From an uncultured Gammaproteobacteria bacterium (GTDB taxonomy: Bacteria; Pseudomonadota; Gammaproteobacteria; JABCZS01), in contig CAWCVU010000004.1 in assembly GCA_963798975.1 (NCBI GenBank), positions 88,912 to 152,911 on the forward strand: DNA of 64,000 bases, given 5' to 3'. This document shows, in pieces, positions 36,001 through 45,000 of the stretch (position 1 is the stretch's first letter; each line of letters begins with the position of its first letter). Made by a program: the position numbers.

Positions 36001-39000
36001 CCGCACTTCTTCAAAAAAAAGCTCTACCATATCTTTGGCTTCACGCTTATTTAAGCCCACCTCAGTAAATAATTTTTCAGCTATATCTGCTTTTGTAATT
36101 GCGCTCACGGCTTAATTCCTTATCGTTGCTTGGTAAGTTTGCTCTAATGCGTGAATCATATTTTGAATCACTGCGTTAATTTCTGCATCCACCAATGTTC
36201 TATCCGACGATTGCAATATAATGCCCATCGCCACACTTTTTTTATCACTAGGCATTCCTTCGCCCTGATACACATCAAAAATCTTAATCTCTTGCAATAA
36301 ACCCGATGCCTTAGCTGCAACCACTTGACATAAATCTTGTGCCGCAATCTTTCTATCCACAACGATTGCTAAATCACGCCGTATGGACGGGAATTTAGAA
36401 ACCTCTTCATAACGCGGTGTTTTACTGGCTAATAAAACGTCCAACTGCAATTCAAATACAAACACTTTGCCTTTCAGTGTCAATTCTTTGGCAATATACG
36501 GATGCAATTGCCCGACATACCCCACACAGTCTTGATGATGCATTAACAAAGCACTTTGGCCTGGATGTAATGCAAGATGAGGTTCTGTGCGCCAAGAAAA
36601 TTCCCCACTGCGGCCAGTTAATGACAATAAAGCCTCAACATCACCTTTGATATCATAAAAATTAGCATCACGCTTGGGTAATTGCCAATGTTTTTCACCT
36701 TGTTGGCTCGTTAATACTCCGGCTATCCAAGGTTGTTGATTTAATTTATCCCCTTCTGGGATAAAACATAAACCCACTTCGAACAAACGCATTTGCATTT
36801 GCTGTCTATTTTGATTGTAGCAAAGTGCTTGTAATAAACCAGGCAATAAGCTAACACGCATCACAGCCATTTGACTGCTCATGGGGTTTAACAACGGCAA
36901 GCCCTTTTGGCCTGTTAATAATTCCTGTATAGCAGGGTCAACAAAACTAGGTAATCAGTTCATGATACCCTCTGGCCACGCACAATTGACTGAGTTTATC
37001 TTGAGACAATACCGCCTCAGGGATTGCTATGGCGCTTAGAGCTAATTCTGGCGCGTGACTGGAATATGTTGAAAGCCATAAACCCGCGCCAACTCTTCGA
37101 TTAAATCTTCTTCGATATTCACATCAAAACGAAAAGACGGAGGAATCACTTGCCAATTATTATTATCTCGGTTCGTGACTTGCATCCCTAAACGTTCTAA
37201 AATCGGTGCAACTGGATTTTAGGAAATCGATACCCAAAATTCGATTAGTCTCTATCCGCACGCAAAGTTAATATTTTTTTTAAGCTCTTGCATCCGGCCC
37301 GATAACCGTCATGGGCCCTGCTTGTCCACCCGCAAATTCAAAAAATTAAACTACTGGCGCGTTCCATCCCGATAAGAACACTAAAGCCGGATATCAACAC
37401 CTCGTTCAAATCGATAAGCACCATCACTTTATTAAACAATCGAAACAAGCGATTTTTCCCGCTGCACACTCAGATGTGGACAAGAAAACGTTAAACTCTC
37501 TAAAAAAATTGCTTTAGTCTCAAGGCTGACGCCGGAATTTAAAACCGCCCATGACGCCGGCAAGAGCCAGAGGATTATTTTCATCGGCTATCACTAAAGT
37601 GCGCGCATCTAATTTGGCCAGTGTTTCATCTAATAGCTTTAAAGTCTCGCCGGGCTTTGCATCGCGTACAATAATTTCTGAGCCTATTTTTTTCTAAATC
37701 AAAAGCATGCAAAGGCTGACCCAGTTCAAACATCACATAATTTGCAATATCAACAATTAAAGAAATACTGCGCACCCCTAAATGTTTTAAACGTTCTTGA
37801 ATAAATAAAGGCGTATAGGCCTGGCATTATCGATGCCACGAATCACGTGCCGAATAATAAAGGACAATCCGGATAAATATGACAGGCAGGTTTTTTGTAA
37901 ATCACAAGTGATCTGAACCGTAGGTATAGATCGTGATGTTAATGGTGTTCGTGTGAGGGCCGACAATTTCTTGGGCCACTCCTTGGATACTTAAACAATC
38001 GCCACGATTCGGCGTCAAATCAATATCAATTAAATGATTGCCCGCTTCTAAAGTCTGCAAGTCATCGACTTCTAATCCTGAAAGACTGAGCAAATCAGCA
38101 AGAGCCTTAATATCTTGTTTAGGATGAACCCAGTCGCGCAGCCAGTGTTCTGTGACTTTCATAACCCAACCTTGTTAAGCAAATTGTTTTAAAACCGGAG
38201 ATCATTTTCAATAGTAAACGTAAATCCGGAATGCCATAACGCAGCATCACCAGACGCTCAAACCCATACCAAAAGCAAAACCGGTGTAACGTTCACTGTC
38301 AATATTACAGGCGTGTAAAACATTCGGGTGCACCATGCCGCACCCTAAAATTTCCAACCATTTTTCACCCCAAGCCACATCGACTTCGGCAGAAGGTTCG
38401 GTAAAAGGGAAATAAGACGGCCGCATACGGATTTTTCAATTTTTTCAAGATTGTTTGAGTATGCTGTGCAATAAACTCTTTGAGATCTGCAAACTACTGT
38501 TTTCGCTAATCAATAAACCTTCAATTTGATTAAACATTGGTGTATGAGTCATATCATGATCGCGACGATATACACGTCCAGGCGCAATTAAACGAAAAAA
38601 AGGCGGCGTATGGTTTTGGGATATAATGAATTTGTACCGGAAAGGTATGGCTGCGGAATAATCGACCATCTGCAAAATAAACCTGAATTGCGGCATGGCG
38701 CGTGCAGGACGGCGTTCTGGGTATTCAGTGCAGTAAAATTATAAAATTCAGTTTCACCTTCTTCCGGGCCTTCCATGGCGCCAAAACCGTAGGGATTTAA
38801 AAATTTCTATTAAATGTTGCAGTGAACGGGTTAAGGGGCGCAAGCTGCCTTATTTATTATCGATACCCTTGGCAAGGTCACATCGATGGTGTCACGTGCT
38901 AATTCTTGATTTAATTGTTGTGTTTCTAAAAATTGGCGACGATTTTGTAAATTGTTTTCGATTAAATCTTTGGCTTGATTAATTAATTGTCCCGCTTGTG

Positions 39001-42000: not shown

Positions 42001-45000
42001 AAAATCCGGTCGAAAGCAAAATCATAATAAAACCCATCTTCAATCACAGGACCAATGGTCACTTGTGCGCGAGGGAATAAACGTTGCACCGCTTGTGCTA
42101 ATAAATGCGCAGTTGAGTGACGAATAATTTCTAAACCTGCATGGTCTTTACTGGTAATAATTTTTAAATTCAGCATCATGATCAATCAGATAGGAGGTAT
42201 CTACTAATTTATTATCAATTTGCCCGCCAGCGCAGCATCGGCTAATCCTGCACCAATAGATTGCAGCCACTTGCATACCGTTACCGGATTATCAAATGTC
42301 TGTTGACTTCCATCAGGCAAAGTAATGACAGGCAATCATAAACTCCAAAATAGAATATGTAGGCACGAGTGGGATCGAACCACCGACCACCACCATGTCA
42401 AGGTGGTGCTCTACCACTGAGCTACGTGCCTGAAAAATGCTCATGGAAACCTGGAATTTTATCCTAAATTACTAGCAGATGGTAGTGAAATCATGTTTAT
42501 CAAAGAAAATAACCCTAATAGGCCAAGGTCATTTATTATTTTGCTATCCACATAGCATCGCCGTAGCTGAAAAATCTGTAGTTGAGATCGATGGCTTGTT
42601 TATAGGCGGTTAGGACGTGTTCGCGTCCTGCAAAGGCGGATACTAGCATTAATAAAGTTGAACGGGGTAAATGGAAATTGGTGATTAAGGCATCGATGAC
42701 TTGGAATTTATAGCCAGGATAAATGAATAATTGTGTTTGGCCACTAAAGGGGACTAATTCGCCTGCAAAAGCTGCAGTTTCTAGGCTGCGTACAACGGTT
42801 GTACCCACAGCGACTACGCGTCCGCCTTGGGCTTTGGTCTTTTTGATTAACTCACACACTGCTTTGGATACATCTAACCACTCGCTGTGCATCTGGTGTT
42901 CGAGTATGTTTTCAACTCTGACGGGCTGAAATGTTCCTGCGCCGACATGTAAAGTGACTTCGCCTATGGTGACACCTTTGGCTTTTATCTTTTCTAATAA
43001 ATCCTTATCAAAATGTAAGCCAGCTGTGGGCGCTGCTACTGCGCCGGGAATATGGCCATAGACTGTTTGATAGTGTTCTTTATCTTGCGCTTCATCGGCG
43101 CGCTCAATATAGGGTGGCAGGGGCATATGACCTATTTGTTCCAAAACATTTAAAAAAGCTTGTTCAGATAATAAAGTCACGCGGTATAAGCTATCAATTT
43201 TTTCTTCTACGCGTAAACGTAAATCTTTTTCTAATAATAATTCACTGCCAGGCTTAGGACTTTTGCTGGCGCGGATATGGACCAGTGCTTCATGTTCCGT
43301 CAATAAGCGTTCAACTAAAATTTCGATTTGACCGCCCGTGGCTTTCTGACCAAATAAACGTGCAGGAATCACACGGGTATTATTTAAAATTAAACAATCA
43401 TTAGGCTGTAAAAAATCTACTATTTGATAAAAATGCGCGTGATTAATTTCACCCGTTTGCCTGTTTAAACACAACAAGCGACTTTGGCTGCGCTGTGCTA
43501 AAGGGTGGGAGGCTATCAGTGCTGGCGGTAATTCATAATCAAAATCGTGTGCGTACATAGTGGCACATCATACCATAATTTTTATATCACGCGCACAATT
43601 TGTGCGCCCCAAAAGCCAGCACTGGTGTCAAATTGCCCAGTAAGACTTGCATCTATCGGTATTCTTGAGGGGATTAAATGGGTGATTAAATTGGCTTGAT
43701 GCACCGGTCCTGATTGAAAAAAGCTATGCAAATATGCAAAATCTAGACGCGTTTTTTCCCAAGATTTGGGCGCTATACCTACGCCCACTGAGAATCTCAA
43801 AGCGATTACTGTCAGGGGTTTGAATTAAACGCGTTTCATCTGAAACCGAACTGGTATCATAAGCAAGGCCCGAGCGAAATTTTATTTCATCCGTATAAAG
43901 ATAATTTGCACCTACAGAATAACGCCACGTGTTTTGCAATGACAGGGGTACATCCACGCCTAACTCTTCATCACCCACCATGGGCGATGAGGTAATCACC
44001 AGTTCTTGCAAAGAACTCCAGTCTACAAAAGTAATATCTGATAATAATTCAACTTTATCATTAAGCTGATGAAACGCACTCCAACTGGCTGCTGCAGGTA
44101 AAGTAATTCCTGCAGCGGCATCTAATGTTGGAATAGATTCAATCAGCGGATTTTCAATTAATTGTTTAAATGATAAATGACCTTGGGTATTTTGCTCCAC
44201 TTGAAAGCGATACGATCATCCCATACGGGTGTATTCGGTAAATTCATAAAGCAGGCCTGCATTCGGATAAAAAGCCACATCATTGCCCTTGTATTCGACC
44301 AATAACATATCCAATTCACGCTGCCCATTATTAGCACCAACTGTTAAATTAACTTTAGATGTGAAATATTGCGCATTCGCGCCAACGCCTAAGGATAATT
44401 TTTCACTGACTTTTGCAGCCAGACTTAAATTAGCATTATAGGCAATCAGCTCAGATTGTCGGCCTATATATTGAGCAGCGCTATGAGAATAATCGTATTT
44501 ATCCAAAAAGGCGAACCTAAATTAGCACCCACTACAAATATATCATTGATAGGCGCGGCCATCCAAAGCTGGAATAAGTGAATTCAGAGAATTCAGACAC
44601 TTGTTCGCCTGCCACACCCTGAATATCATTGCCAAAACTATCGTCTGCAGAATCTATGGTTAAATTTGCATCGACCTGAGAATAAGCCAGCGAGCCCACG
44701 ATTTGTGTCTCTTCAATCAAAGTTAAACCGGCAGGATTATAAAAACCAATACTCGCATCATCGCCTGCAGCACCCGCGCCTGCAAATGCATTACCCATGG
44801 CCGAAACACTTTGCTCATCAACAGCAAGTGCTGCTGCAAATAAATGTGAAGGAAATAACAGAGTCAGTAATAAACTTTTTTTAAAACGCATACAACATCC
44901 TTGTAATGGTTTTGTTTTATTATCGAGGTAACTTCACATCCCAAATAATCCCACATTTTCCCGAGTAAATAAATCACATAATAAGAAAGATCAAATTGCC

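Follow-up and report, generated by a model that had tools for sequence, protein, structure and literature searches.

Frameshifts in thrS, rplT, pheS and pheT of an uncultured gammaproteobacterium are very probably an assembly or consensus artefact

We have analysed a 64,000-nt stretch of DNA (hereafter the window; positions 88,912 to 152,911 of contig CAWCVU010000004.1, assembly GCA_963798975.1) from an uncultured gammaproteobacterium with ~40% G+C, the closest named relative of which is annotated as 'MAG: Legionellales bacterium' (MAG, metagenome-assembled genome). Exact look-ups place the proteins of the window on the public 158,090-bp contig in NCBI/ENA. The minus strand carries the translation operon thrS-infC-rpmI-rplT-pheS-pheT-ihfA, in which none of thrS, rplT, pheS and pheT can be read as one open reading frame (ORF). 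We conclude that these breaks are very probably an artefact of the assembly or consensus of a mixed population in a metagenome contig; that is, the breaks do exist in the deposited sequence without being a biological feature. Four things were observed directly: the damage is arranged in tracts, the insertions and deletions (indels) have a characteristic spectrum, the coding signal is preserved, and five other broken genes of the window are intact in contigs derived from reads. It seems probable that the two tracts of the operon share the cause of the other damaged tracts and that an assembly step was responsible for all of them.

Gene order and reading frames of the operon

The seven genes lie in the stated order on a single strand, as shown by tblastn and by alignments that tolerate frameshifts against proteins from two relatives (L002 and L090), and this bears out the arrangement described in an earlier note made from the sequence alone. 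Together with the flanking genes, the features are as follows, in the order in which they are transcribed.

42359-42431, minus strand: tRNA-Val(GAC), intact, directly upstream of thrS (ARAGORN; Rfam tRNA, 69.8 bits)
40425-42335, minus strand: thrS (threonyl-tRNA synthetase), TTG start, 8 frameshifts
39885-40418, minus strand: infC, open, 177 codons from a TTG start, 94.9% identity to InfC of L090
39605-39802, minus strand: rpmI (L35), open, 65 aa
39241-39595, minus strand: rplT (L20), 4 frameshift events and a TAA
38175-39160, minus strand: pheS, 10 frameshifts
36112-38162, minus strand: pheT, 15 frameshifts
35779-36108, minus strand: ihfA, open, identical to a read-derived Logan contig
35469-35792, minus strand: merR-family regulator, open, overlaps ihfA, identical to a read-derived Logan contig

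The division between four unreadable genes and the open infC, rpmI, ihfA and merR-like genes is thus as the earlier note had described it. All the expected Pfam domains score above cut-off in the products of the operon, either in native or in frame-corrected translation. In six relatives (L001, L002, L082, L086, L087 and L090), taken from collections of genomes, metagenomes and Logan contigs, the operon has the same order and each gene is intact (6/6); that is, the frames are uninterrupted in every relative but not in this record.

Compared with the canonical gammaproteobacterial cluster of E. coli, the operon has the same genes, order, strand and Pfam domains, and its infC also begins with a non-AUG codon, which is usual for this gene. 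TTG is the only option for the infC start here, with an in-frame TAA three codons upstream (40416-40418). There are three differences from the canonical cluster. In this record 37 indels interrupt four of the genes, and the merR-family gene overlaps the end of ihfA. Moreover, the PheT of this clade has a length of ~675 aa (~673-680 aa in the window, L002, L082, L086 and L090), and no tRNA_bind domain (OB-fold) was detected by the Pfam scan between its N-terminal segment and B3_4, whereas E. coli PheT carries a tRNA_bind domain.

The frameshifts are confined to two tracts

Frameshifts were counted by a dynamic-programming alignment that permits frame changes, using the proteins of L002 and then those of the closer relative L090 against the window DNA, and the result was cross-checked by nucleotide alignment to L082. 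The total is 37 frame-shifting indels (8 in thrS, 4 in rplT, 10 in pheS and 15 in pheT), with zero in infC, rpmI, ihfA, the merR-like gene and queA. The eight shifts of thrS correspond to nine pieces, and the ten of pheS are distributed along the entire gene; the five and three pieces given by the earlier note were therefore undercounts. For rplT it had called for at least four frame switches and the read-through of an in-frame TAA, and this is matched by what we have found, namely an extra G at 39589, shifts of -1 at 39552 and at 39490, and a net +1 at 39328-39320, the last of these being the indel cluster from which the TAA arises.

All of the 37 events fall in two tracts, 42227-41008 and 39589-36949:

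41008-42227: damaged tract T4, 8 indels in ~1.2 kb, both ends within thrS
36949-39589: damaged tract T3, 2.6 kb long and reaching from codon 3 of rplT to mid-pheT, 29 indel events

In thrS the frameshifts are confined to codons 37-444 and the final 187 codons are clean; in pheT they are confined to codons 67-397 and the final 278 codons are clean. If the 37 events were uniformly placed, the chance that all of them avoid the clean 42% of the sequence (2.9 of 6.87 kb) would be 0.578^37, or ~1.6e-9, and for pheT alone the chance of the same clustering is ~4e-4. Considering this strong clustering (P ~1e-9), and considering that the other genes of the window are open over ~40 kb (including ORFs of 1042, 583, 562 and 500 codons), uniform sequencing error was rejected as an explanation.

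The ends of the damaged tracts fall inside thrS and pheT and, elsewhere in the window, inside sucD, sdhA and gltA. This indicates that the damage follows position and is not distributed per gene or per function. The earlier note had listed a local consensus or assembly error among its possible explanations, and had held against it that the damage respects gene boundaries. That objection is factually wrong, since thrS and pheT themselves contain tract ends, and the explanation itself is supported by the present results. The genes infC, rpmI, ihfA and merR probably look spared only by lying between or outside the tracts.

Lesion spectrum and preserved coding signal

Once the frames are corrected, the products of the four broken genes are highly similar to the intact proteins of L090, with identities of 86.8% for ThrS, 93.9% for L20, 82.6% for PheS and 75.5% for PheT. 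The corrected ThrS contains the TGS, tRNA_SAD, tRNA-synt_2b and HGTP_anticodon domains, L20 scores 138 bits to Ribosomal_L20, PheS contains Phe_tRNA-synt_N and tRNA-synt_2d, and PheT contains B3_4, B5, tRNA_synthFbeta and FDX-ACB. Conserved protein sequence picks up straight after every shift. When relative rates were compared using L090, L082 and L002, identity in the damaged segments was only 1-6 points under the expectation from the clean segments, and this deficit is about what would be expected from a few mis-translated residues per shift together with base errors at the per-cent level.

These results bear first on the reading that the breaks are genuine pseudogenes, in which the bacterium would recently have lost thrS, rplT, pheS, pheT and also the genes of the tricarboxylic acid (TCA) cycle described below, and would survive by means of intact copies elsewhere, a co-resident strain or a host. 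We consider this very improbable. It is true that the frameshifts are present in the deposited sequence, that the clade is one of probable intracellular bacteria, and that the window contains Legionella_OMP paralogues and effector-like genes; the many frameshifted genes, those of the TCA cycle included, and the intracellular relatives do resemble the accumulation of pseudogenes in host-restricted bacteria. However, real gene decay in bacteria is deletion-biased, involves larger deletions, favours repeats, is accompanied by substitutions including nonsense codons, and tracks the dispensability of genes. In the operon we have seen no deletion bias, no large deletions, no preference for repeats and no nonsense codons of this kind, and likewise no pattern of dispensability. 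The genes thrS, rplT, pheS and pheT are kept in nearly all reduced genomes.

In ~1,750 codons there is no clean nonsense substitution, compared with 37 frameshifts, and the two in-frame stops are both situated in indel clusters. There is no excess of non-synonymous and nonsense substitutions such as relaxed selection would leave, only a small excess of amino-acid changes. The indels are 1-2 nt in size apart from two alignment gaps of 4 nt, and no deletion exceeds ~4 nt. Their direction is balanced in the 36 events that could be placed (18 net-plus and 18 net-minus; the raw gaps comprise 30 insertions and 21 deletions). As to slippage-prone sites, 49% of the indels are at non-repeated bases against a background of 49.6%, and only 6 of the 51 raw gaps lie in runs of four or more bases. 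A tract that begins and ends inside genes is also not what gene loss would be expected to produce, and no second copy of the operon genes exists in the window, where the sole other match is ihfB (11620-11895). The suggestion of the earlier note that this might be a decaying or non-viable lineage is therefore contradicted by the preserved protein sequence, the lack of clean nonsense changes and the indel spectrum, as well as by the five of five broken genes that are intact elsewhere (see below). Its other suggestion, intact second copies, is not needed to explain the data.

The wholly protein-like frames downstream of each shift could also be expected if the frameshifts were real and were bypassed in expression, with transcriptional slippage, programmed ribosomal frameshifting or RNA editing yielding full-length proteins. 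In insect endosymbionts, polymerase slippage at long poly(A) tracts does rescue frameshifts. For the present operon we give this reading hardly any credence. It would have to act at 37 sites with shifts of +1, -1, +2 and -2; no slippery heptamer or long homopolymer accompanies each site, and no common flanking motif is apparent by eye, no motif search having been run. Half of the sites are at non-repeated bases and run lengths equal the background, and the extra A of glpK, which belongs to the minority of indels in homopolymers, is absent from the read-derived contig. On the same run-length evidence, homopolymer-type error and natural slippage were both rejected as the main source of the indels in the operon, though homopolymer-type error does fit the isolated indel of glpK.

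Damage elsewhere in the window

Several other parts of the window are damaged in a comparable way:

16377-24893: damaged tract T1 (sucD, sucC, sucB, sucA, sdhB, sdhA), ~80 frameshifts
26592-26893: damaged patch T2, 3' part of gltA, differing from two identical Logan contigs by 7 substitutions and 2 indels
43795-44962 and 45924-46681: damaged tracts
43795-46681, minus strand: fadL/Toluene_X-like gene (5 frameshifts and 1 stop), desaturase (1 frameshift) and ketoacyl synthase kas2 (4 frameshifts)
56546: glpK indel, a single extra A (A6) that splits the gene into ORFs 56536-56952 and 55476-56447

The ORF-poor part of the window at 16-25 kb is the sdhCDAB-sucABCD operon. Aligned with the E. coli proteins, sdhA shows 16 frameshifts, sdhB 6, sucA 32, sucB 11 and sucC 15, while sucD has one frameshift and a TAG, and sdhC and sdhD are clean. 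The substitutions in the gltA patch are mostly to T (minus strand). An apparent gltA frameshift at 27120 in the alignment guided by E. coli was dismissed as an end-of-alignment artefact, since the Logan contigs equal the window there.

As separate observations, the clean islands at 39605-40418 (infC, rpmI) and 24998-25713 (sdhC, sdhD) have a third-position G+C content (GC3) of 42-45%, compared with an average of 33% in the other open genes of the window and 22-35% in the damaged genes. Two fatty-acid desaturases stand in tandem in L090 and one in the window.

Read-derived contigs are intact where the deposited sequence is broken

We have compared the window with Logan contigs of the same organism from three ENA runs (ERR11561019, ERR11718638 and ERR12035940). 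The contigs used are:

Window 33029-36595: L084 (ERR11561019), 100%, stopping 354 nt short of the first frameshift in pheT
Window 12249-16376: L085, 3 mismatches
Window 30996-26894 and 26591-24894: L088 and L089, 100%
Window 50140-46782: L091, L092 and L093, 100%; L091 stops ~100 nt before the first kas2 frameshift
Window 56456-61572: L094, 3 mismatches and 1 gap

In the clean parts, ~22 kb of Logan sequence agrees with the window except for 6 mismatches and 1 indel. All five of the broken genes that these contigs reach (sucD, sucC, sdhA, gltA and glpK) are open there, with the reconstruction covering the 3' part of sucC and the 5' part of sdhA. L085 shares an identical lpxH flank with the window and then, from 16377, departs from it by indels and ~13% substitutions; on this contig SucD is intact (298 aa) and the 3' part of sucC is uninterrupted. 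On the other side, two mutually identical contigs from separate runs, L088 and L089, contain an intact gltA (418 aa) followed by sdhC, sdhD and sdhA, the first 242 codons of sdhA being open, and they diverge from the window from 24893 onward. That is, the 8.5-kb TCA tract is flanked on both sides by Logan contigs that enter an intact allele with no branch, and the allele difference at both edges of T1 is ~13-17% of nucleotide positions. In sucD, the alleles of the window and of the Logan contig differ in 62 codons synonymously and in 31 non-synonymously. Because these substitutions are mostly synonymous, the TCA tract of the window is a genuine second allele, overlaid with noise from indels, and has the appearance of a chimera with a co-occurring relative.

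The other two cases are simpler. The gltA patch shows noise with no allelic divergence, its 7 substitutions and 2 indels falling within 300 nt, and in glpK the run of A6 in the window is A5 in L094, which reads through. Genuine gene loss is contradicted by the 5/5 comparably broken genes that are intact in Logan contigs with identical flanks, unbranched at the tract edges. We have also looked up seven ORFs that are frameshift fragments, and 7/7 are recorded from the deposited contig only and never from Logan, which is a weak point because the 'sources' field of these records is not exhaustive.

A TCA tract that is a different allele between flanks of 100% identity is, however, also the pattern expected of homologous import. 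The contig might then be faithful to a rare recombinant strain, with its tracts imported from a diverged relative and now decaying. This we regard as very improbable: the indel noise is restricted to the tracts, the gltA patch is noisy without allelic divergence, the contigs from two runs are unbranched at the tract edges, and decay by indels only is unlike neutral decay. A further and more novel reading, in our opinion highly improbable, is a real sub-lineage in which kb-scale tracts of core genes (the TCA enzymes, ThrRS, PheRS and L20) were swapped for the alleles of a diverged relative and then became riddled with indels; such a defective genome would survive only with complementation by an intact sister strain in a shared host cell or niche.

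Independently of the tracts, single-base differences between the window and the Logan contigs occur at 12267, 12420 and 12498 (rpsA region) and in 56456-61572, which points to microdiversity among the strains of the population that was sampled. At least three ENA runs contain the organism, and the run accessions gave no match in the literature.

Evidence on the four operon genes themselves

For thrS, rplT, pheS and pheT the verdict of an artefact is reached by extension, because they show the identical signature and because all five of the other broken genes that could be compared are intact in reads. Several points weigh against it. The claim for the four genes would hold by analogy with five other genes of the window, and no read-derived contig was found for 36595-46782, which comprises thrS, rplT, pheS and the 5' part of pheT; the same gap, with no independent contig over the four genes, would suit the pseudogene reading. 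Logan has no record of the exact products of infC (looked up with either of two starts), rpmI or queA. With frame-corrected queries, no near-identical intact ThrS or PheS was found in the protein collection, where the best matches are at 86% and 79%, respectively, and a query with the middle part of PheT returned none above 55% besides the contig's own fragment, apparently returning only short proteins. The record of sources is itself incomplete, as a 367-aa Ald that lies on the Logan contig L088 is nevertheless listed for NCBI/ENA only. In addition, the highly conserved infC and rpmI form a clean island between the two tracts.

A metagenome scan with the C-terminus of PheT found only two relatives, at 65-72% identity, and in a genome scan with InfC the best among the matches listed is at 91%. 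We have also asked about a foreign-allele origin of the operon tracts, and the relative-rate and GC3 comparisons did not separate a foreign allele, as in the TCA tract, from noise only, as in the gltA patch.

A possible origin of the damaged tracts

Collapsing alleles with nearby variants leads to wrong read alignments and INDEL errors, and hence to truncated ORFs and apparent frameshifts (PMC8445201), and assemblers for long-read metagenomes merge related strains into consensus contigs (PMC8302730). The damage in the window is like such errors from collapsed haplotypes or unpolished long reads in that it consists of local tracts of 1-2 nt indels with truncated ORFs and a protein signal that is kept, and in that it coincides with allelic divergence and vanishes in an independent reconstruction. 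It is unlike the classic errors of nanopore or 454 sequencing, as the indels of the window are not concentrated in homopolymers, the glpK site excepted.

On this basis, the following course of events may be proposed. Most of the contig would be accurate, but several kb-scale tracts would not have been cleanly built from the reads of the dominant population. In these tracts the consensus would carry roughly one spurious indel of 1-2 nt per 70-150 nt together with some substitutions, and in the largest of them it would take its allele from a diverged relative that co-occurs. The tracts probably arose where reads of two related populations were piled together, giving a noisy or collapsed consensus; alternatively, a long-read backbone may have been left uncorrected by the polishing reads in those stretches. 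The faulty step may have been collapse, polishing or gap filling. Two such tracts would then happen to land on thrS and on rplT-pheS-pheT.

Neighbouring genes

The plus strand at 31096-35425 carries a tandem array of four paralogous genes of the Legionella major outer-membrane protein family (340, 408, 324 and 303 aa). Both of the paralogues that were scanned have a Legionella_OMP Pfam match, and in the relatives L082 and L086 this position is taken by one or two such genes. Effector-like loci are found at 53938-55281, 59321-60799 and 6154-8472. A 447-aa protein has borderline Pfam matches to a TcdA/TcdB glycosyltransferase and a DXD region, a 492-aa protein has a faint WD40 match, and a membrane adenylate/guanylate cyclase and a patatin-like phospholipase are also among the effector-like genes. 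These genes are consistent with an intracellular lifestyle of the Legionellales kind.

Implications

In the contig, and probably in its genome bin too, the consensus is unreliable over kb-scale patches and at least one allele is chimeric. Such patches will deflate estimates of completeness, create false pseudogene calls, and mislead the inference of metabolism and symbiosis. As a rule for telling artefact from decay, we can point to damage in the shape of tracts, a protein signal that is kept, indels without nonsense changes, and a mismatch with contigs from the same runs.

For the organism the consequences of a literal reading would be large. Taken at face value, the TCA tract would imply the loss of the TCA cycle, and genuinely dead operon genes would make this a remarkable bacterium, one that lives with no ThrRS, PheRS or L20 of its own. 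In the living organism, by contrast, thrS, rplT, pheS and pheT are probably intact, single-copy and functional.

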